Assembly (NCBI GenBank): GCA_951406725.2
Contig: OX597814.1
Coordinates: forward strand, 203,546,001 to 203,610,000
Direction: 5' to 3'
Length of the DNA stretch: 64,000 bases
DNA from: Octopus vulgaris
Lineage: Eukaryota
The notes beneath the pieces were generated by a model. The model searched no databases. It had not been told where the DNA came from and saw only the letters and a list, made by a program, of their open reading frames with translations. Made by a program: the position numbers and the translations under genes. Shown in pieces: positions 6,739 through 57,128 of this stretch (positions within the stretch are counted from its first letter, which is position 1; each line of letters starts with the position of its first letter).

Positions 6739-7547
6739 CAGGCATACATCATTTTGATTTAAGTCATTCTCAATTATATGTTGGTTTTCAAAAATAATTT
6801 ATGGAAAGATAAAAATCAAGTTAAGTCGTTTTACTTGACTTTACATCTGTCTACCACAAATATTGGAATCGTAAAATCACTAGAAAACCATTAAAAACAC
6901 ATAAAATCATGTTACTGTACAATATATAAGAATAAAAGCATATAAAATCATATTAAAATACATACAGTAAATGTTAAGATACACACCATAAAGTAGTGTA
7001 AAGATACATACCATAAAGTAGTGTAGCTCAGTGAACAAAATCATGAAATCAGCTGTTTTGTCATATTTATCAGTCTTTTGGAGCTCATATTGCACTGTCA
7101 CTCACGATTGTTTTGAATTCAGATTTGTTTACATCTGTTTATCGGCTGCTTTCTCATTCTCATTCATTTGTGACCTTATTTTTTGCTCCAATGGCTCCTA
7201 AGAAAATTCATTGTGAAAGTGCTGAGCGTCATGCTATAACACTGGAAGATAAACTGGCTATGATAAAACACCATGAAATAGGTGAAAATGTGGTAGCAAT
7301 TGTACGATCTTTTGGGATGAGTCAGACAACTGTATTGACGATTGTACGTAATAACGACAAGATTTTAGCAAACATGGTTTTTATCAGCCATGTATTATTG
7401 AAAATGCATTCATAAATAAAGTACAAAACTGGTAATGGATATTATTGGTTTAGCCTAGAGATAAGTAAATTCAGCCCAGAGACAAGTTGATTCGACTTAA
7501 GTTGTGCCTCCTGGAACCAATCAACAACATAGGATGAGGTATGCCTG
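6739..7547 (+). mobile_element. Internally deleted Tigger/pogo DNA transposon
   Basis: TA at both ends. TIRs CAGGCATACATCAT / ATGAGGTATGCCTG. ORF from 7191 MAPKK...AITLEDKLAMIKHHEIGENVVAIVRSFGMSQTTVLTIVRN resembles a CENP-B-type N-terminal HTH. No DDD domain. Confidence 0.8.
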
Positions 7548-12784: not shown

Positions 12785-13880
12785 AGGCGTGTTGGCTGAA
12801 TAGCTCATAGGTTGACCAAGGCACACTCATGGAATGACCAAATTAGGTTTATTTTTCAACATTTTCATCCTAGCAGTCAGCACATGTCTTCCATTGGTGT
12901 TGCAGTACTTTGATCCCATTGGTGAAGAAGCTTTCATCTGGCTGCTGGTCAAAAAGGTCATCAAGGGCAGATATGATGTCATCATCACTGTGATACTGGT
13001 TTCCAGCTAAGTGTTTTTCTGTGTTGAAGAACAGGTGATTGTCAGATAGGGTCAAATCAGGTGAATAGGGAGGATGCTCAACCAGTTCAGAGCCACAGTC
13101 ATGCACAACAGTCATTGTAACTAATGATTTGTGTGCGGGAGTATTGTCCTGATGAAATAAAATCCCTTTCGTCAGTTTTCTTGGGTGTTTGGTATTCATA
13201 GCCTTTCATAACTGCCTCATCTAGTTGGCATAATACTCTCATCATACTCATCATAATAATTGATGATGTAGTCCTTATGAAGATAGCCAATAAATACAAT
13301 GCCTTTTGCATCCCAAAAAACTGAGGCCATCACCTTACATGCAAATGGAACGACCTTGGCCTTTTTTGGAGCAGATGAGGTGGGGTGTTTCCACTGCATA
13401 GATTGATGAAACCAACACTCATCCTTGGTTAGGAAAAGTTCCAGGAAACCAGCTGGATCTGCCTCAAACAATGTCAGATTCAACCTGGTGTGCTTTTGAT
13501 CAAGTGTCAAAAGATGTGGCCCCCCACCAGGCAGGAACCTTCAACATGCCAAGTCCATTGTGTAGAATATTCTCAACCCTCTCATGAGTTATGCTAACAG
13601 CATTGCTTATTTGATTTATAGTCAATCACCTGTCACCTATTATCATGTGGTAAATATGATCAATGTTTTCCTCAGTGGTGGCAGTTGCAGGACATCCAGA
13701 CTTTGGGTCATCTACAAGACTCTCTCTTCCCCTCCTAAATTCACATACCCACATATGCATTGTTGGTAAAGCTGGAGCATTATCCTCTAATGTAGCAACC
13801 AAGTCAGCATAAATTTCTTTGGGGGCTAAACCCTTTATCTGCAGGTACTTGATAACACTATGGTGCCAAATTTTGTTCTT
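12785..13880 (-). pseudogene. mariner transposase relic
   Basis: ORF fragments LFHQDNTPAH, HPPYSPDL and VMASVFWDAKG, with frameshifts. Confidence 0.9.
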
Positions 13881-14645
13881 AGGTAGTAGATTTAATCCCT
13901 TGTCCAGTTTAACACTACCACTTAGCTATCCTTGGGGAACTTTAGCAGAATCTATTTTATAGCAAGCTTTCAGACCAAGAACATAGTCTGAGAATAACAT
14001 ACAAATTACAGTTTCTTCCTTCATTCCCACAGTGGTCATGAAGACACAGCAGAAGATAATTGGTTTGTTCTTCTTCTAATTAAGACTCCAAAACTCTCAA
14101 ACATTTAATTTCTTATAGGTGTGTCTGTCTGCCTATCAGTATTATGTATATAGATAAATTTATGTATGTATGTATGTATGTATATATGTATGTATGTATG
14201 TATATACACACATGTACACATACAACACACAAGCTCACACATCATCATCACCATCATCATTTAACATCCATCTTCCATGCTGGTATATCTTGCAAAGTTT
14301 GACAAGATCTGCCAGGTCCATGAATTATTTTGTGTGTCAATGTTTGCTTTGGTAAGGTACCTTTGGCTGGATACTATTGCTAATGCCAATCACTTAACAC
14401 TGTATAAAGTGCTTTTTTCATGGCACTAGCACTAGTGAGGATACCATGCAGCTTTCAAGATTAAGGCTCCCTTTAATTGAATGGAGTTACATGAGAAGGA
14501 GAGGAGGTAGTATACTAAGAGAAGAAAGATTAAAGTATGAGGAAAGGGGCCAGAAAAGATGTTTTTTGCTGCAGAGGAGATACCATAATAGAAGAAAAGG
14601 AGGAAGTGACAAAGGATGAGCTGGAAAGATATATATATATATATA

Positions 14646-25179: not shown

Positions 25180-25458
25180 TTAGGTATAATTTAGTGAGTG
25201 ACAGGATATTTGATACTTTTAATGCCCTATATAGGCTGGGAGTTATTAGTAGTGTCACAGCAGCTTGTCTGGGACTGATTATATTATAAAAACATTCATG
25301 AGGAATATGTATGCGTGTATGTGTGCATGTGCGTCTGTGTACTGATGCTTGTAAGTGCATGAGTGTGTAAGTCCTTTTATATACATATAAATATGCTTCT
25401 ATACTAATATATATATATATATATATACGCGAGAAAGAAGCAACAAGAATGGATAGGT

Positions 25459-25549
25459 TTTTAGTACAATCGTTTCATACAAGGACAGGCTTTATTAAAA
25501 GTTGCAAAAATTGCAGCATATAAACGTGTCCCGTACTCATCAGCTAAAA
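25459..25549 (-). ncRNA. Type I hammerhead ribozyme (mirror copy)
   Basis: Exact reverse complement of 25778-25868. Confidence 0.8.
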
Positions 25550-25777
25550 TACATGTGAGTTCTCTAGACATCCTAGTGGTTGAGGCTATACTCATGAAGT
25601 AATGTAGATAATTAAGTAACATAAACAGATTTCCAAAGTTCATTAAAGTTCTTTAAAGATGGTGTACAGTCTTAAGAACTTTAATGAACTTTGGAAATCT
25701 GTTTATGTTACTTAATTATCTACATTACTTCATGAGTATAGCCTCAACCACTAGGATGTCTAGAGAACTCACATGTA

Positions 25778-25868
25778 TTTTAGCTGATGAGTACGGGACA
25801 CGTTTATATGCTGCAATTTTTGCAACTTTTAATAAAGCCTGTCCTTGTATGAAACGATTGTACTAAAA
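25778..25868 (+). ncRNA. Type I hammerhead ribozyme with minimal stem III
   Basis: Stem I TTTTAG/CTAAAA; CTGATGA (25784-90); stem II GTACGGGACA...TGTCCTTGTAT; GAAA (25851-54); CGATTG; TA. Predicted GUA cleavage after 25862. Confidence 0.8.
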
Positions 25869-26013
25869 ACCTATCCATTCTTGTTGCTTCTTTCTCGCTT
25901 ATAATCACCCCACATTACTGTATTGTTAAAACCGTATAGTTTTTTGGTGCATCTAAGTTAGGTACCATATTCAAGTAAATTCATTTAAATTAACTTGAAT
26001 CTTTATTGCTTTT

Positions 26014-28511: not shown

Positions 28512-31500
28512 ATCATCATCATCATCATCGTCGTTTAACGTCCGTTCTCCATGCTAGCATGGGTTGGACGGTTCGACCGGGGTTCTGGGAAGCCAGAAGG
28601 CTGCACCAGGCTCCAGTCTAAATTTGGCAATGTTTCTACAGCTGGATGCCCTTCCTAACGCCAACCACTCCGTGAGTGTAGTGGGTGCTTTTTACGTGCC
28701 ACCTGCACAGGTGCCAGGCGGGGCTGGCAACGGCCACGGTCAGATTGGTGTATTTTATGTGCCACCGGCACGGAAGCCAGTCGAGGCGGTGCTGGCATCG
28801 GCCACGAGTCGGATAGTGCTTTTTACGTACCACCAGACCAGGGATCCTGGCTGGTTCAATTCGATTTCGATTTCGCTTGCCCCAACATGTCTTCACAAGC
28901 AAAGGGGTTGGCAAGGGTGCCTGTCGTACGGTCGCATTGGAGTATTTTACATGCCACGGCCACGAGTCGGATAGTGCTTTTTACGTACCATCAGACCAGG
29001 GATCCTGGCTGGTTCAATTCGATTTCGATTTCGCTTGCCCCAACATGTCTTCACAAGCAAAGGGGGTTGGCATGGGTGCCTGTCGTACGGTCGCATTGGA
29101 GTATTTTACGTGCCACGGCCACGAGTTGGATAGTGCTTTTTACGTACCACCAGGCCAGGGATCCTGGCTGGTTCAATTCGGTTTCGATTTCGATTTCGCT
29201 TGCCCCAACATGTCTTCGCAAGCATGGGGGGTTGGCATGGGTGTCTGTCGTCAGATGAGGTTCTATATCGACTTCGCTTGCCTCAACCGGTCTTTGTGTC
29301 CAAGGGAGGAAAGGCATTCATAAGTGGGCTGGGCTCACTTGTCCTGCCTGGTCTTCTCACGTACAGAATATTTCCAAAGGTCTCGGTCTCTGGTCATTTC
29401 CTCAGTGAGGCCTAAAGTTCGAAGGTCGTGCTTCACCACCTCGTCCCAGGTTTTCCTGGGTCTACCTCTTCCACGGGTTCCCTCAACTGCTAGGGATTGG
29501 CACTTTCTCACACACCTATCTTCATCCATTCTCGCCACATGACCATACCAGCGCAATCGTCTCTCTTGCACACCACAACTGATGCTTCTTAGGTACAACA
29601 TTTCTCTCAAGGTGCTAACGCTCTGTCGAGTATGTACACTGACATTACACATCCATCGGAGCATACTGGCTTCATTCCTCACGAGCTTACGCATGTCCTC
29701 AGCAGTCACGGCCCATGTTTCGCTGCCATGTAGCATGGCTGTTCGTACACACGCATCATACAGTCTGCCTTTTACTCTGAGCGAGAGGCCTTTAGTCACC
29801 AGCAGAGGTAAGAGCTCCCTAAACTTTGCCCAGGCTATTCTTATTCTAGCAGTTACACTTTCAGCGCACCCACCCCCACTACTGACTTGGTCACCTAGAT
29901 AACAGAAGCTATCAACTACTTCTAGTTTTTCCCCCTGGAAAGTGACGGAAGTTGTTTTCTGCAGATTTTCGGAGGTTAATGCTCCCGAGCATCTGCCACA
30001 TACAAAAACTATCTTCCCAGTTAGCCTACCTTTGACATTGCTGCACCTCTTATGTGTCCATAGCTTACACTGGGTACATCTTATAGAGTTTCTACCTACA
30101 CCTTTTCTACAGATCGAGCAGGGCCATCTTCCTGAAGATATTTGTGGATTGTCTACCTTTCTACTTATTAGTACTTTGGTTTTAGCTAGGTTGACTCTAA
30201 GGCCCCTTGATTCTAAACCCTCCTTCCACACCTGGAACTTCTCCTCCAGTTCTGATAGTGACTCAGCAATAAGAGCAAGGTCGTCAGCGTAGAGGAGCTC
30301 CCAGGGACAGCCTGTCTTGAATTCCTCCGTAATTGCCTGGAGTACTATGATAAATAGGAGGGGGCTGAGTACTGAACCCTGGTGGACCCCAACCTCTACT
30401 TTGAATTCTTCTGTGTACATGTTGCCAACCCTAACCTTACTTACGGCATCTCTGTACATGGCTTGCACAGTCCTCACCAGCCATTCATCTATCCCTAGTT
30501 TCCTCATTGACCACCAGATAAGGGATCGGGGGACCCTATCAAAAGCTTTCTCCATGTCAACGAAAGCCAGGTACAGGGGCTTATCTTTGGCTAGGTATTT
30601 CTCCTGCAGCTGCCTTACCAGGAATATAGCATCAGTGGTACTTTTCCCTGGCACGAACCCAAACTGCATCTCATCTAAACTAACTCTCTCTCTAATTAGT
30701 TGGGCTATGACCCTCTCCGTAACCTTCATTACTTGATCCAACAGCTTGATACCTCTGTAATTATTTGTATTTGTATCTAGGGCATCACCTTTACCTTTGT
30801 AGCAGTTGACTAGTATGCTGCTGCACCAGTCATTGGGTATGACTCCTTCGTGTATCACCTGGTTGACTATACGGGTGACTAGGTTATAGCCGACACTGCC
30901 AGATATTTTGAGCATCTCTGCAGTAATTCCTGATGGGCCTGGGGCTTTCCCTGTCTTCATGCTTCTAATTGCCTTAGCTACCACGGAACTATCAACTCGG
31001 ATAGCTGGTCCCTCTGTAGGGTCAACATTCGGCAGACTCTCTTTATCCCATTCATTTTCCTCATTCAGTAACCTTTCATAGTGGCGTCTCCAAGCTTCTC
31101 TCTTTGCATCCTCATTTAGCGCAAGTGAACCATCCTCCATGCGAACACATTTCTCTCCTACCACATCACGATTCTCTCTCACACACTGTCTTGCAACACG
31201 AAATACCTCAAGTCTTTCATCCTCACGGCGCAGGACATTGGCAAATTTTCTCTTATCTGCTTCCCCTCTGGCTAGATAGACCTGTCTCCTAGCTTCCCTT
31301 CTGGCAGTCTGATACCCTTCCCTGCTACCACCGTTCTTCCAGGCCTTCCAAGCCTGTTTCTTTTGTCTAATAGCCCTGTCAACAATATTGTTCCACCACC
31401 ACGTTATTTTGGGTCTTAAGGGGACTTTGCACCAGCCACAGATCTGGTCAGCGGCTTTCAGCAGGTTGTCCCTCAGAAACGTCCAGTTGTCTTCTACCCC

Positions 31501-31728
31501 ATGTGTAGCTATACCCCCTTCCACCCCTTCAAGTAACATATCCACTTGTCCATTCGCAGGGGCTTTAAGCTTCCAGACCTTCTTCTCCATGTTGGTCGTT
31601 CAAGTAACATATCTCTAAATCTCTGTCCATTCGCAGGGGCTTTAAGCTTCCGACCCTTCTTTCCATGTTGGTCGTCTTCTAGTCGCCCTCTTAGTCCTGA
31701 TCCTAAAGTCACTAACTACCAGTCTATG
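28512..31728 (-). mobile_element. Young 5'-truncated RTE-clade LINE
   Basis: Long RT ORF, about 820-bp 3' UTR with three tandem units of about 158 bp (28801, 28958, 29117), and a (CAT)n tail. Confidence 0.93.
29335..31590 (-). CDS. RTE LINE ORF2 (reverse transcriptase with PHD-like insertion; endonuclease missing through 5' truncation)
   Basis: Motifs KAPGPSG, NYRGIKLL, QFGFVPGKST, FVDMEKAFD, GVHQGSVLSPLLF, LLYADDL, YLGD, RLRWYGHVARM and RGRGRPRKTW. The annotated start codon is not the native one. Confidence 0.9.
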   Translation of the reverse strand: MEKKVWKLKAPANGQVDMLLEGVEGGIATHGVEDNWTFLRDNLLKAADQICGWCKVPLRPKITWWWNNIVDRAIRQKKQAWKAWKNGGSREGYQTARREARRQVYLARGEADKRKFANVLRREDERLEVFRVARQCVRENRDVVGEKCVRMEDGSLALNEDAKREAWRRHYERLLNEENEWDKESLPNVDPTEGPAIRVDSSVVAKAIRSMKTGKAPGPSGITAEMLKISGSVGYNLVTRIVNQVIHEGVIPNDWCSSILVNCYKGKGDALDTNTNNYRGIKLLDQVMKVTERVIAQLIRERVSLDEMQFGFVPGKSTTDAIFLVRQLQEKYLAKDKPLYLAFVDMEKAFDRVPRSLIWWSMRKLGIDEWLVRTVQAMYRDAVSKVRVGNMYTEEFKVEVGVHQGSVLSPLLFIIVLQAITEEFKTGCPWELLYADDLALIAESLSELEEKFQVWKEGLESRGLRVNLAKTKVLISRKVDNPQISSGRWPCSICRKGVGRNSIRCTQCKLWTHKRCSNVKGRLTGKIVFVCGRCSGALTSENLQKTTSVTFQGEKLEVVDSFCYLGDQVSSGGGCAESVTARIRIAWAKFRELLPLLVTKGLSLRVKGRLYDACVRTAMLHGSETWAVTAEDMRKLVRNEASMLRWMCNVSVHTRQSVSTLREMLYLRSISCGVQERRLRWYGHVARMDEDRCVRKCQSLAVEGTRGRGRPRKTWDEVVKHDLRTLGLTEEMTRDRDLWKYSVREKTRQDK

Positions 31729-37814: not shown

Positions 37815-39021
37815 ATGCTCATTCACACACATATGTCATCCAGTCATCTGCAGTGAATTAACTTGCAAGAACTGACCAGCAATGAATTGACCTACAGCAC
37901 AATTTGTTGCCAGACTGAAAATGCCAATTTCTGAGAATGGTATTTTAGGATGATTAGTGACTGAGACTTTTGATCGAAGATTTCTCTCTAAATTGGAATG
38001 ACTTAAAATCACGTTTCATAAAATTCAATTCAGACATGTACAATTGCATGTGCACATTTTGTCTAAAACTAAAAATTATTTTGTTGTTATAGATTTGAAT
38101 TCAATTAATTGAAAAAAGAAATCAATAATTTGTAAAAAGATAAAGAAAAAATTTATTTCTCACCAAATGTTCTCAGCACAAACCCCACAAAAAAAAAAGA
38201 GAACACAACCATAAATCAAAAGAACAACCATAAGTCCTTGATTTTAAGCACTGTTAATTAGGAACATCCCACAAAGAATAGAAGCAAATGGTGTTCTATA
38301 ACTATAATAACTATAAATAACCTGAAGTTTGAGAAAAATCTAAGTTCTCATCAAACATGGAAATATAATGTCTTAAAACTGCAGAATGTTGAAAACCTGC
38401 ACGGTAGAGGATCCAGAGATAATATCAGCTGATCTGTCTGTGCTCTCATAATGCTTTCGAAAGCCAGACTTGTCTTCTATGACTTCTATGAAAGGGTCTA
38501 TGTTTGGAGACTAACACAGGATGCTTATATGAATACATCTCTAAAAAGCTCCAGCAGAGCACTGCTATTCATCAGCTCCAAAGGTGTGATCATTTTCTTT
38601 TACCTTGTTTTAGTCATTGGAGTGCAGCAAAGCTGGAATAATACCTTGAAGGATTTAGTTGAACAAATTGACCTCAGTACATATTTTTACAGTCTTTTAC
38701 TTATTCTGTGGGGCTCTTTTGCTAAACAACAAAGTTATAGGGATGTAAACACACTAACACCAGTTGTCAAGTGATGAGTGCGGGAGGGAGAACACAGACA
38801 CAAAGGCACACTTGCACACACACACACAGAGTGGACTTCTACACAGTTTCTGTCTACCAAGTTCACTCACAAGGTATTCGTCAGCACAGAGCTATAGTAG
38901 AAGACACTTGCTCATGCAAACTGTAAATCTGATACCAAATGATTGCAAATGAAGCCTCCTAACTATAAAGCTATGCCTACACCTACATATATATATATAT
39001 ATATATTTATTTTATAGAAGG

Positions 39022-39072
39022 AGCTTCTACAGGACTAGAACTGTTTCATTCAAAAGAAATCATCAGGAAGCT
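39022..39072 (-). ncRNA. Compact type I hammerhead ribozyme, solo between (TA)n tracts
   Basis: AGCTTC-CTGATGA-TTTC-TTTT-GAAT-GAAA-CAG-TTCTAGTC-CTG-TA-GAAGCT. Perfect 6-bp stem I and paired stem III. Confidence 0.8.
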
Positions 39073-39158
39073 ATATATATATATATACACATATATATAA
39101 TATAAATAATATATATATATATATGCATACACAAACACACACACATGCACACACATGT

Positions 39159-40452: not shown

Positions 40453-40980
40453 ATTGGGTCGTCTGGAAAGTTTGTGCCAATTTTTAAAGGAAAGAAAAAG
40501 GTCAATAAATACTTGCCATTACACTTTTAATCAACCAAATATGAACCATTTTGTTGCACAATGTGTCTCCATCTTTCCTTTAATTTGAAAATACCCTCTT
40601 CCCAGAATTGAGGTGGTTTCATGGCAAAGAATTCATCAAAGTATCTTTTTATGTCATCCAAGGAATTGAAATTTTAACCATTAAGACTATTCTGCAGAGA
40701 CCTGAATAAGTGGAAATCCAAAGGAACAATATCTGGTGAATAATTCCGTTTATAAAGCATTTCCATTCTGTTTATAAAACAAATCACAGATGGAAATGCG
40801 ATCCAAAAAGTTCTTCTCACTCAACTCATGTAGTACCCAAACATCGTAGCGATTTGTGTACCCAAGCTTTACCAGGTGCTCATGAACAACGGATTTTGAT
40901 AGGTTGAGGCTTTCTGCTAATTCTCAGGTTGTGCAATGTGGGTTATTCTCAATTAATGACTTGATTTGGTCATCATCTGT
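40453..40980 (-). pseudogene. mariner relic (deleted)
   Basis: TA-TTGGGTCG terminus. Minus strand encodes SPDIVPLDFHLFRSLQN. Confidence 0.75.
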
Positions 40981-41127
40981 TATTCGTATTAGGAAAAGCA
41001 TGCACCCATAGAAACCATAGTTATACAGACACTGGAGAAGGATGTCATTGGATCCTTGTCGAACCATCCAACCCATACCAAAGTGTGTTTGAATATGGAT
41101 GAAGAAGTGTTTCTTCTCTCTCTCTTA

Positions 41128-41176
<49 letters not shown>

Positions 41177-41179
<3 letters not shown>

Positions 41180-42338
41180 GTTAGAAACTAAGTTCCTGCC
41201 ATTTTTAAAAATTTAAATTTTTTAAAAGGTTTAATAAAAAATAACAACTAATTAATCAATAATGTATTCACCCTTGTTGCTTACAACTTCTTCCCAACGT
41301 TCAACAAGATTTTCAATACCTCGTTGGTAGAAATCACCCGATTTTGACTTGAAAAATTGATCCAACCAAGCTCTCAATTCTGCATCAGTACTGAATGAAA
41401 CTCCACGCATGGAGTTTCAAAAGAGGTGGAAATCAATTGGTGCCAAATCAGGAGAGTATGCCAGGTGTGGCAGCACTTCCCAGCCATGCGTTTGAATGAA
41501 TTCCTTGTTCATATTGGCGATATGAGGGCAGGTGTTGTCATGCAGCAGAGAAACTCCATGCTGATGTTTACATCTTTTCTCTTGAATAGCCATGTTGAGT
41601 TGTTCTATCTGTTGAATATAGAGTTCTACGTTGACCGTTTGGTTCTGTTCAAGTAGTTCATAATGGGTAATCCTTTTCCAGTTCCATCATATGCACAACA
41701 TCATTTTACGTGGATGAAGATCTTGTTTCATGTGTGGTGTCGCTTGTTTACTGTGGCTAAGCCATTCTTTACATGGCTCCATATTGATGTACAGGCACCA
41801 TTTTTCATTGCCAGTAACAATTCAGTAAAGAAATTGTTGCTTGTCTCCATGAGTTGAGCGGTGATGAGCAAACAAACCAGCAGAGATTGTGGCTTGTTGA
41901 TTTTTGTTGTTATCACTCAAAGCATGCGGAACCCATGCTCTATACTTCTGAACCTTTCCCATCCAGTGAAGATGCTTCTCTGTAGCAGTGTGGAAGTTCC
42001 CTTGTCATTTGACAAGAATTTTTGTGCAAAAGTTGGTTTAATCACTCTTCATTGAACTCAACTGGACGGCCAGAACGAGGTGCATCTTTGAGGTCAAAAT
42101 TTCCATTTTTGAACTTGGCATACCAGTCATGAGTGGTTCTTTCAGCTATGGTACCCTCTCCATACACAGCACAAATGTCGTGAGCAGCTTTTGCGGCCTT
42201 AGAACCTTGATTCTTGCAATTTCAAATTTTAAGTGATTGTAGATTTTTTTTATTTTTCATCCTCTTTATTTACAATCCTGAAATCAAATGGGCATGTTGG
42301 ATCAATTAGTTAGCAACTTCGCTTACTTTCGAACCATT
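41177..42338 (-). pseudogene. Near full-length decayed mariner element
   Basis: ELLLAMKNGACTSIW region (frameshifted IVTGNEKWCLY), PHLAYSPDLAPIDFHL and HEWYAKFKNGNFDLKDAPRSGRP on the minus strand. Confidence 0.85.
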
Positions 42339-46915: not shown

Positions 46916-47799
46916 TTTATTAAATAGCTGTCTAACCATACGCCTTCTTGTTGACTCTATTTTTTCAATTTTCAATTATATATAGATAATATATAAAGTG
47001 TGTAAAAAGATTCGAGTGAAGTCGTTGCCAGTACTGCCTGACTGGCCCCTGTGCCAGTGGCATGTAAAAAGCACCCACTACACTCTCGGAGAGGTTGGCG
47101 TTAGGAAGGGCATCCAGCTGTAGAAACTCTGCCAAATCAAGATTGGAGCCTGGTGCAGCCATCTGGTTTGCCAGCCCTCAGTCAAAATTGTCCAACCCAT
47201 GCCAGCATGGAAAGTGGACGTTAAACGATGATGATGATGATGATGATGAAAGTAAACAGAAAATAGAGAAATATTGATCAACAACAATTGACTAACATCA
47301 ATTATTGCTTTTTAATTCAATACAAATAGACTGTATCCCATCTAACAGCTGTTTCTGCTTGCAATGTTATAAGGTATTGCCACTGAAAATTCTGAAAATA
47401 ATATTCATCATATTTGGTAATACATCTGATCTGGAACATCAGAGTGAAGAAAAAATACATACATAAAAGAAAAGAAGAAGAGCCTCGAGAAGAAGATGAA
47501 AGGCTTAATATATATATATATATATAGGTGCATATACATGATGATTACTTCATCTTGAGAGATGATTGCCGTCCCATCAACACACACACCACACTCCATC
47601 ACACAGCACAATCACTCCGTTGATGAGCCCTTAGATGACTTTTAAGACCAGCTGCTGACTGACAGATTTTAAAATACAAGTGACAGATATTCAAGTTTCT
47701 TCTATATCTTTGCTCTTTGGAATCTGATTCTGAAGGAATGTTTTTGTGAACTAGCATATGCCTTTCAATTCCAGATATTGTCTTTCAAGTTTTGTGACA

Positions 47800-48500
47800 T
47801 ATGACACAAGTTGTAAGAGGCGGTTGGTGTCCAAAATCATTACCTATCTGTGCATTACGATTTCTATGTGACTTCATATGATTCACGTATCCTGCTTTTG
47901 ACAACAGAACACGGTCACATATAATACATATCCAATGTTCACTGTTTATTACAGTTCCAATTGTTCCTTTGCGACAGGCCCTTTTAAGTCCAGAGTGCTA
48001 AATCATCTTTTCCTCCCAGGCATAGCAACCAGTCCAAACAGCACCTCTCCACTTGTTCCACTCTAGAACATCATTTTCCTAACCACTTTTGTTCATATCT
48101 AGTTTTTTCAGGTTTTCATTCACACAGTCTTTATACCTTTCCCTCAACTTATGTTGTGGTCACTTACCAGAGTTGAGCTCACCATAAAAAAGACACTGGT
48201 AAACACTCGTCTTTCATTCTAATAACAGGTCCAGTCCATCTCATTTGAGTCAAGATAACATGTTGTTCAATTGAGCTGCAACGTACCATGCACAAAACCT
48301 CTGTATCTGGTATGAAACATTCCCACTTGACTGCTATGATATGTCTGAAGCACTTTTGATGAAACCTCTCCAGCATTTTTATATAATACTTGTAAGTGGT
48401 TCATGTCTCACTTGAATAAAGAAGTACAGACAATACCCACGCATTATAGACACTGATTTTTGTCTGCTGGGAAATACCTCTATCTGCCCAAATCTCTGCA
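47800..48500 (-). pseudogene. RTE/BovB-like ORF2 C-terminal relic
   Basis: LERFHQKCFRHIIAVKW...QMRWTGPVIRMKDECLP. Confidence 0.8.
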
Positions 48501-48697
48501 TCGAGACTACTATCTCCTTTTAAGGAGAACACTGCTCACCTGGATATACTGGGAAGGTTCTAGATAAGATGCACTAAAAATTGTCTATCCTTTCTCTGCT
48601 GGTTAGTTTTCTGCAGCTAACAGTGGTTCAATTTAGCAGGAATTAACAAAGAATTGATATAAACAATGATAACCCGAGCTCAGAACACACGTACACA

Positions 48698-49500: not shown

Positions 49501-51933
49501 GTACATATTTAAAAAAAATATATATATATATATATTTAAAATTTGAAATTTTTACAATTTAAAAATGTTTTTTTTTTATAAAAATAAATACATAGATAAA
49601 TAAATTCACAATCAAAAATATAAAATAAAATAGATACAAATATATATAAATACATAAAAAAGATATTAAAAAAGATAAAAAAACTAAAAAGATATATAAA
49701 TATATTTACAAATACACTCACACACACACACACCCATGTTCACATAATGTTGGATGGCCGTTGACTACACATGAGTTCTTCCACCCTTTGGTGCATATAC
49801 ATACATATACAGGGTGTTCAGACTAAGGGCTAAATTTGACAGTTTGTGTCAAAGGAAAAGAAAACACAATATCCTAACCAAAAATTAAATTATTTTTAAA
49901 GAATGAAAATGTATCAACTAGATTATGGCTTGGAGATAACAATTTACTCAAAGGAGCTGTCCTCCACTTCCACCACACCCTCAAGATGGCTCCAGAGCCT
50001 GGTGCATGCAATCCTCACTTTTTTTCTGGAAAGATCTTAGAACAACTTCTTGATCTTGGCCACTAGCTCAGCCTTTAAGATGCAGGCAGAGCAGTTGTGT
50101 CTTTCTCAACTGTACCCTACATGTAGTAAGCCACGCAATTACAAATGGGGGAATTAGGAGGTCAATAATTGGGACTGGTGAAGTTGTAGAAATTCTCTGA
50201 CAACCACTTCTGACACTTCCTGGAGGTATGGCAAGAAGATGAATCCTGCTGCCACACGCATGACCTCTCCAGCCAGGGAGTGACCAAGTCTCCAGCAGCT
50301 TCAGATAAGGTCCTGTTTATCAGTTGTTGGATGAATTTCAGCATGTGAACATGATCAGAACTCCTGCTGTGTCCCTTCAATTGTGGCTTTTATTCCTGGA
50401 CCAGGTGAGTCCTTATGTAAAATACTTCATTTCATGTTATTCCACTCTACTCAGCTGAGAATGGGTACCAGCTGAGAGCTGATACAGCTCTCCCACACTC
50501 CATCTGTCACATCCTGAATGTGATATTTGGTCAAAGAGTGGGCAAGTCAAAATTATTTCTATGTGCTTATAACACCTAAAATATGTGAAAACATGGTACA
50601 TGTAATCAAACCATACTCATTCATGAGTAATGACTGGCTCTTTGTATGACTCAACAACCTCAGTTAGTTTGAATTTTCTACAAGGTATTTTCTTTGCTGC
50701 TCTGTTATGAGAAGCATCAACACTATTTGATAAAAACTAAATAGAATAGAATATAATTTTAAGGCAAACAGCTGGTAGCATGCTTTGTTTTTTCAAAATC
50801 TATGTAGAAGAAATTCTTCAAAATGTCTCCAAAATAATTTACCATATAGTTATAATCTTAATCTGGTTATGTTAGATTCAGGTATTGTCCAGTCTACAGT
50901 ATTTATTAATAGCTGATGTAGTTTTTTTCCTCCTACACAAGAGTAATGTATTAATCATACAGAAGTTCTACTCCAAGCAACAAGCCTTGTCACCAGAGTC
51001 CTCTTTAGCTTTTATGATGTGAAGCTTCTAAGAAATTTAGGTGTGTTGCTGAGAGAATTAATTGGCCCATCACCACTTCAATGACTCAACAGAACAGCTG
51101 AGAAAATTATTGATATGTTCTTTATAATTTTTATTTTCATTTGTATTTATCCTATGAGGACATAGAATGTCTACATTTGGTGTGAAGCTTTCATGAAAAC
51201 AATATTTTATTATTATCTACAAAAGTGGTGCAAGTTTATTATACAAGACTTTATTTATTTAGCAATATGCCATGATTTCCAGCTAAAATTTCCTTTTTGC
51301 TTTTTAGCATTAACTATATTTGATGTTTGTGGCTAATACATTAAGATAACAATGTCACTTATCTATAACTAAAGCAGTCAACCTCTTAATAGAGAAGGCC
51401 CTTCTTTTACTGATATTAGGCGTGGGCATGGCTGTGTGGTTAGGGAGCTTGCTTTTTAGCTACATGGTTTCGGGTTCAGTCCCACTGCGTGGCACTTTGG
51501 GTAGGTGTCTTCCACTATAGCCCCGAGCCGACCGGAGCTTTGTGATTGAATTCGGCAGGCGGAAGTTACTGCCGTGTGTGTATATGTGCATGTAGGTGCT
51601 TGTGCTCTCTCCGAAAGAGAGAGAGAGGGATATATATAATGAAAGCAAAGATTTCACTGATATTTTAAATTTAATTTAAGTTCTGCTATTGTTACTACAA
51701 TTAAAATACAAGCATCATTACTCATATGCACATGTAATTGATATTTGAAAATACATAATTAACTCCTTTTGAATGAGATGAATAAACTGTTTCATCAGGA
51801 AATATAACTTGTTTTTAAATTCCATGGATATATATATATATATGTATGTGTGTGTTTGTGTGTGAGTGTGTGTGTGTGTGTGTGTTTAAGCCTTATATGT
51901 GTGTGTGTATATGTATATGTATATGTATAAGTA

Positions 51934-56620: not shown

Positions 56621-56710
56621 TACAGTTCTATATTTAAGAGATGAGGAATTATGTACATTATTTACATTGTTTACATTTGACGGATATTTGTCCTCATCTT
56701 TTTTGTTGTT

Positions 56711-56756
56711 AACTCAATGTTTCGGCTGATATACCATCCAGCCTTCATCAGGTGTC
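56711..56756 (-). ncRNA. Minimal hammerhead ribozyme
   Basis: GACAC-CTGATGA-A-GGCTG...CAGCC-GAAA-CATT-GAGTT. Confidence 0.7.
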
Positions 56757-56826
56757 TTGGGGAAATTTCAAACCTGGGTTCTCATTCCTAAGGTATTTTT
56801 CAATGTTGTTGTTGTTATTATTATTG

Positions 56827-56864
<38 letters not shown>

Positions 56865-56936
56865 GTTATTATTATTATCATTATTCAGGTCACTGCCTAG
56901 AATCAAGTTTCCAGGCAGTGATTTCAGGTAGTGAAG

Positions 56937-56971
<35 letters not shown>

Positions 56972-56995
56972 AACCCAGGTTTGAAATTTTCCCAA

Positions 56996-57041
56996 GACAC
57001 CTGATGAAGGCTGGAGGGAATATCAGCGGAAATGTTGTGTT
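56996..57041 (+). ncRNA. Minimal hammerhead ribozyme
   Basis: GACAC-CTGATGA-A-GGCTG...CAGCG-GAAA-TGTT-GTGTT. The two arms imply an ancestral GAAACGTT. Confidence 0.7.
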
Positions 57042-57128
57042 AACAACAAACAAGATGAGGATGAATATCCGTCAAATGTAAATATTATTAATAATGTATA
57101 TATATATATATATATATATACATATTTA

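Follow-up and report, generated by a model that had tools for sequence, protein, structure and literature searches.

The insert and its hammerhead motif

The window, by which we mean the whole 64-kb stretch of DNA analysed here, is AT-rich animal DNA, rich in microsatellites and carrying mariner and LINE remnants. Within it an insert of 65 nt (39007-39071), in which the ribozyme takes up 50 nt and a 3' tail the other 15, lies between two (TA)n tracts. The ribozyme is a 51-nt type I hammerhead with a full core, read directly from the minus strand (39072-39022). The outermost A of its stem I doubles as the first base of the right TA tract, which at 39072 opens a 230-nt microsatellite block. The initial sequence-only reading, in which a 51-nt hammerhead fills most of an insert between two (TA)n tracts, is therefore borne out (50 of the 65 bases, tracts at 38987-39006 and 39072-39087). 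The features of the locus are:

39022..39072, minus strand: type I hammerhead with stems I, II and III and a full core (sequence, descriptor scans and constrained folding)
39072-39067 with 39027-39022, minus strand: stem I, AGCUUC/GAAGCU, six Watson-Crick pairs (sequence)
39060..39066, minus strand: core box CUGAUGA, C3-A9 (sequence)
39048..39059, minus strand: stem II, a U10.1-U11.1 mismatch followed by three pairs, UUC/GAA, and a UUUU loop (sequence and folding)
39044..39047, minus strand: core box GAAA, comprising G12, A13, A14 and A15.1 (sequence)
39029..39044, minus strand: stem III, ACAG/CUGU, 39044-39041 with 39032-39029, closed by an 8-nt loop (sequence and folding)
39027..39028, minus strand: predicted cleavage site, 3' of the A in GUA, between 39028 and 39027 (hammerhead consensus)
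39013..39031, minus strand: predicted competing 8-bp hairpin in which the tail pairs with the scissile A and with stem I's 3' strand (-6.1 kcal/mol)
39007..39021, minus strand: 15-nt 3' tail from stem I to the (TA)n tract, putative 3' terminus of a parent element
38987..39006, no strand: (TA)n tract of 20 nt on the 3' side of the insert, putative target
39072..39087, no strand: (TA)n tract of 16 nt on the 5' side of the insert, putative 5' truncation point

Using the core consensus given in PMC3088659, we found C3 U4 G5 A6 N7 G8 A9, G12 A13 A14, the A15.1-U16.1 pair and H17 all in place. Three helices of 6, 3 (plus the U-U) and 4 pairs surround the core and stem I is open, which is the type I layout. 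The centre of loop III is the palindrome CUAG, for which folding allows pairing within one molecule or between two. By its core and helices the motif at 39072-39022 is thus a type I hammerhead, for which self-cleavage is predicted. The perfect stem I, the intact CUGAUGA and GAAA boxes, the paired stem III with its 8-nt loop and the GUA site all read as had originally been claimed.

The motif has no Rfam match at gathering threshold, its best hammerhead score being 16.7 bits for RF00008 against a threshold of 48.5 (E 0.14). The other PLE-type hammerheads in the window (those resembling the ribozymes of Penelope-like elements, PLEs) likewise fall below the Rfam thresholds, and hence the score does not discriminate. 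A C/D box snoRNA candidate (SNORD102-like, 19.3 bits against 47) was rejected, as CUGU stands in place of the box D CUGA before the terminal stem, and the Rfam miRNA matches proved to be driven by microsatellite sequence.

Likeness to Hydra-clade and other hammerheads

We compared the insert with the Hydra clade of PLEs, taking as reference set Files S1 and S2 of Craig et al. 2021 (PMC8557442) and counting a family listed twice once. In that set 26 of 27 families insert into (TA)n, and the hammerheads are sense-oriented and close to the 3' end. The insert shares the (TA)n flanks and, if its orientation is taken from the ribozyme, a sense-strand hammerhead near the 3' end, here 15 nt from the TA tract. 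A U directly after CUGANGA together with a U directly before GAA occurs in 14 of the 25 Hydra-clade hammerhead families (PMC8557442), and the same U-U stands at 10.1-11.1 here. Stem III begins with AC and ends with GU in all 25, four of which have the ACAG/CUGU found in the insert (the set of Penelope-9_HM, Hydra-1_Amil, Penelope-1_NV and Penelope-2_SK offers examples of these shared traits). Penelope-9_HM also has a stem II of 3 bp with a 4-nt loop (PMC8557442), matching the 3-bp stem II closed by a tetraloop here.

There are also clear differences. Loop III has 8 nt in the insert but 1-3 nt in 25/25 of the published hammerheads, and the tail has 15 nt as against 30-100 nt in the six new Hydra consensuses seen (30-40 nt after stem I in three, about 80-100 in the other three; PMC8557442). 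Stem II is A-U rich here. The single ORF that defines the clade, encoding a reverse transcriptase plus a C-terminal GIY-YIG endonuclease, is absent at the locus, as expected for a 5'-truncated copy, and we therefore call the insert Hydra-like rather than filing it in the Hydra clade. Hydra-1_Obim, the published octopus Hydra element, has another hammerhead sequence with no match here, and only one of seven insert-derived motifs sought in the supplement of PMC8557442 was matched, once, in a coral element. Recently active Penelope-like families have been reported in Octopus vulgaris (PMC13282606), and the role of PLE hammerheads is still called unclear in PMC8557442.

The mismatched first pair of stem II had initially been noted as the one flaw of the motif. 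The U-U is indeed present, but its occurrence in 14/25 Hydra-clade hammerheads makes it a family trait and natural variant rather than a sign of decay. It is found in a retrozyme hammerhead too, HHR_Amex2 of the axolotl (PMC7229834), and so the U-U alone is not diagnostic of the Hydra clade.

In metazoan genomes, lone hammerheads from truncated PLEs are said to be the usual situation (Cervera and De la Pena 2014, PMC4209133). With these minimal hammerheads our motif shares its layout as a lone type I motif of the kind scattered as truncated PLE ends, the palindromic centre of helix III and the lack of a clear tertiary contact. They have, as described in PMC4209133, no helix III or a tiny one, a helix II of 6-8 bp and G10.1-C11.1, whereas here helix III has 4 bp, helix II is short and the U-U is present. 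Axolotl HHR_Amex2 shares the U-U at helix II's base and has a helix III stable enough for some cleavage as a monomer, as the one here may be, but its helix III has only 2 bp and it belongs to 350-bp tandem repeats that give rise to circular RNAs (PMC7229834); no tandem unit is present here.

Predicted activity

Constrained folding placed the hammerhead fold of the bare 51-mer 0.3 kcal/mol above the minimum, with a stem I pairing of 0.99 and marginal stems II and III (-0.1 and -1.4 kcal/mol). When the tail was included, stem I pairing fell from 0.99 to 0.09-0.16 and the hammerhead fold to less than 1% of the ensemble, while 19/500 shuffled tails lowered stem I pairing as much as the real one. 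These figures are equilibrium predictions. Since transcription reaches the ribozyme earlier than its tail, cutting could to some extent take place co-transcriptionally. The self-duplex of loop III has a predicted energy of -12.8 kcal/mol, which 105 of 840 loop permutations equalled or bettered; this is compatible with a dimer, the usual mode for PLE hammerheads (PMC6765202), but not significant. Dimerisation through the loop III palindrome would thus be allowed, but a lone copy would have no partner in cis.

By inspection, the loop 1-loop 2 contact of the canonical fast type I hammerheads (the Schistosoma/retrozyme type) is absent here: loop 2, UUUU, has no obvious partner in loop 1, and stem I runs out into the TA repeat. 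The conserved loop 1-loop 2 contact requires an A in loop 2. Fast hammerhead cleavage comes from tertiary contacts, in which a reverse Hoogsteen pair is conserved (PMC6155905). The U10.1-U11.1 is the best tolerated mismatch at the 10.1-11.1 pair (PMC3088659), and the axolotl hammerhead with a U-U was cleaved to 22% in 1 h as a monomer and far better as a dimer (PMC7229834). For a lizard PLE, insertion in vitro is described as having no need of cleavage, and RNA-seq as showing no ends at the site (PMC11167929).

From these models, the 51-mer on its own is somewhat more likely than not to cleave slowly at high Mg2+. Efficient cutting as a monomer in the natural setting is doubtful, given the UUUU of loop 2 and a tail whose predicted fold covers the cleavage site. 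Substantial or routine cutting of a host transcript in cells would accordingly seem unlikely. The proposal that this is a candidate for monomeric self-cleavage thus stands in so far as stem III is predicted to close within one molecule, and is weakened by loop 2 and the tail hairpin. The further suggestion, that any minus-strand transcript crossing the locus would be cut, finds no support: the modelled loss of stem I pairing and the UUUU loop speak against it, and the ORF scans described below found no such transcript or host exon. With its 4-bp stem III and longer loop, the motif offers a handy test case for monomer cleavage by Hydra-type U-U hammerheads.

Copies, origin and surroundings of the insert

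We found no second copy of the insert in the 64-kb window; a 17-nt likeness at 51785-51801 lacks the hammerhead layout. A word search of sequencing runs returned 23 rows from 8 studies and 3 organisms. The run X1 has 14/14 words but may be the source of the window, and the other 22 have 3-5/14; no RNA run is among the 23 rows. Contigs of X1, X6, X2 and X20 were aligned to 38400-39105 with the repeat at 38970-39105, and hence the hammerhead, excluded. X6, X2 and X20 gave zero cover at 38928-38975. Their shared words would then sit in the insert or its TA tract, which hints at copies elsewhere, a lead rather than evidence. The contig depth of X1, with about 80% of the run read, was 24.9 at 38928-38975 compared with 53.2 at 38400-38519; this drop, likewise a lead only, could come from the fifth of the run left unread or from heterozygosity close to the insert.

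None of the 62 hammerhead loci from a metagenome scan has the stem II, loop III or tail of the insert, and none of five loci from a viral scan has its sequence. About 18 of the 62 metagenome loci, probably host DNA of termite gut samples, belong to a hammerhead family that is AT-rich and unrelated, though four stem I pairs are identical. This family has a CUUC/GAAG stem I, is multi-copy (L007, L016, L017, L025, L029, L031, L034, L038, L047-L049, L054 and L059-L062) and has a stem III that is palindromic and reaches 6 bp; L047 carries two hammerhead copies in opposite orientation, and L026 and L051 have a minimal form. A literature search on hammerheads of octopus, cephalopods and Penelope found no study of octopus hammerheads. 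Our look-up lay outside Repbase and Dfam, and the family of this hammerhead may already be catalogued.

Our preferred reading, held with good confidence, is that the insert represents the 3' end of a Hydra-like PLE that went into a TA repeat and was truncated at the start of stem I. This reading is supported by the frequency of PLE truncation and of lone PLE hammerheads in metazoan genomes (PMC4209133), and we also count in its favour the (TA)n flanks, the traits shared with Hydra-clade hammerheads, the outcome of the Hydra-type descriptor given below and two further hammerhead-bearing inverted pairs in the same window that end in microsatellites. A longer parent element, as had been anticipated, fits the insert best in the form of such a PLE 3' end, but the 64-kb window holds no parent or second copy, and no remnant of a PLE ORF was detected among the ORFs scanned in it. 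By analogy with PLE biology, the GIY-YIG endonuclease of a TA-targeting PLE would have nicked the (TA)n tract, and reverse transcription would have begun close to the 3' terminus of the RNA and copied the tail and then the ribozyme. After some 65 bases, on reaching the beginning of stem I, copying would have ended, possibly with the help of TA microhomology. A target-site duplication would be indistinguishable inside the TA repeat. In the parent element the ribozyme would process the precursor RNA, probably better as a stem III dimer, and in this copy it would be a passenger with neither promoter nor ORF. If the insert is a PLE stub, it points to a TA-targeting family whose hammerhead differs from that of the only octopus Hydra consensus examined.

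A chance match in AT-rich DNA could be argued from the very many windows scanned overall and from 1,741 simulated windows (local order-2 Markov), which gave 4 strict, 11 middle and 85 loose descriptor matches at settings picked with the match already in view. The ordinary folding energy of the 51-mer (z 0.04) and the single copy in the window would also agree with chance. The motif is the sole match in the window under all five descriptor settings, and none of 117 prokaryote background loci with the bare core pattern has both stem I and stem II. Against chance stands the Hydra-type descriptor, drawn from the published Hydra-clade layout with loop III allowed up to 10 nt to admit this motif, which matched once in the window (39072-39022) and never in 2,510 simulated windows. 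Moreover, the motif has a TA tract on either side, although no more than 3.1% of window positions lie 40 nt or less upstream of one. We regard a chance origin as a very remote prospect. We rate it as equally remote that the ribozyme has been domesticated and, acting as a monomer, cuts a minus-strand transcript of the host. The core is intact, stem III is predicted to close within one molecule, and domesticated hammerheads are described in mammals (PMC6155905). The predicted tail hairpin would block the cleavage site, however, loop 2 is UUUU, the surroundings are SINE-like, mariner and microsatellite DNA, and none of 58 ORFs scanned at 33-46 kb matches a non-transposon Pfam family above cut-off.

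Two readings retain the idea of a mobile element. The insert could be a stand-alone non-autonomous mini-element of about 65 bp, ribozyme plus tail, that is copied by PLE enzymes into TA repeats. Its 5' junction lies exactly at the start of stem I with little else in the insert, the motif is intact, and the tail hairpin, which 19/500 shuffled tails equal, could act as an off-switch or aid product release. But the window contains no second copy, the insert has no promoter-bearing sequence, PLE truncation is expected at any point (PMC8557442, PMC4209133), and TA microhomology could explain the junction. We consider this improbable, and give the same low odds to a reading in which the 65-bp insert, itself mobile, is carried into TA repeats by Hydra-like PLE enzymes, its stem III competent as a monomer and its tail hairpin turning cleavage off once folded or driving product release. 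Such an element would be far shorter than retrozyme units, which are 170-400 nt (PMC7229834), and many copies of it would seed cut sites in host pre-mRNAs. The insert might instead be a monomer fragment of a non-LTR retrozyme. A stem I of 6 bp and a stem II of four positions are the sizes canonical for retrozymes (PMC4209133), mollusc retrozyme hammerheads that lack the usual tertiary nucleotides exist, and the U-U is also that of axolotl HHR_Amex2 (PMC7229834). However, the locus has no 170-400-nt tandem unit with a type I hammerhead, the canonical metazoan helix III has 1-2 bp (PMC4209133) compared with 4 bp here, and TA targeting fits PLEs. A 2026 preprint (10.64898/2026.07.22.740005) in any case links retrozymes to PLE ends or derives them from these. 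A retrozyme origin is in our view highly improbable.

The surroundings were searched for host genes. Besides the ORFs at 33-46 kb (58 of 71 nearby ORFs scanned), a scan of 95 of the 136 more distant ones gave no host-gene family above cut-off, only transposon or retroelement domains or sub-threshold matches. Short exons can escape such a scan, so the insert could have an intronic position. A SINE-like high-copy repeat lies just 3' of the insert at 38595-38915; the window contains about nine relatives of it, and each large sequencing run yielded thousands of contigs that aligned to it. Fragments of mariner transposase (HTH_48, Transposase_1) and of a CENP-B N-terminal domain occur at 40530-42221, 12873-13925 and 7047-7412. 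A 754-aa open frame at 29335-31599 on the minus strand, with a reverse transcriptase and a PHD-like domain, marks a LINE with a long intact stretch, presumably RTE-like. On the same strand at 47560-48560 is a decayed LINE 3' region that ends in C2H2 zinc fingers and has a TA tract next to it; the C2H2 match itself, at 47788-47997, resembles the 3' end of a LINE.

The motif at 39022-39072 differs from the window's other hammerhead-like motifs in that its stem III is predicted to close within one molecule. An inverted pair at 25424-25903 has 230-nt arms, 229/230 identical and 20 nt apart, with its left end in (TA)n. Each arm carries one hammerhead (core 25784, GAAA 25851 and GUA 25862 on the plus strand), with an unusually long stem II region of about 60 nt (-13.3 kcal/mol); the tail measures about 33 nt. 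This pair is likely a young head-to-head PLE end. Minimal PLE-type hammerhead copies at 56650-56786 (minus strand) and 56966-57102 (plus strand) are 89% alike, stand back to back and adjoin (AAT)n/(TTA)n tracts. Both inverted pairs, 25424-25903 and 56650-57102, share the head-to-head layout described for PLE insertions in PMC8557442.
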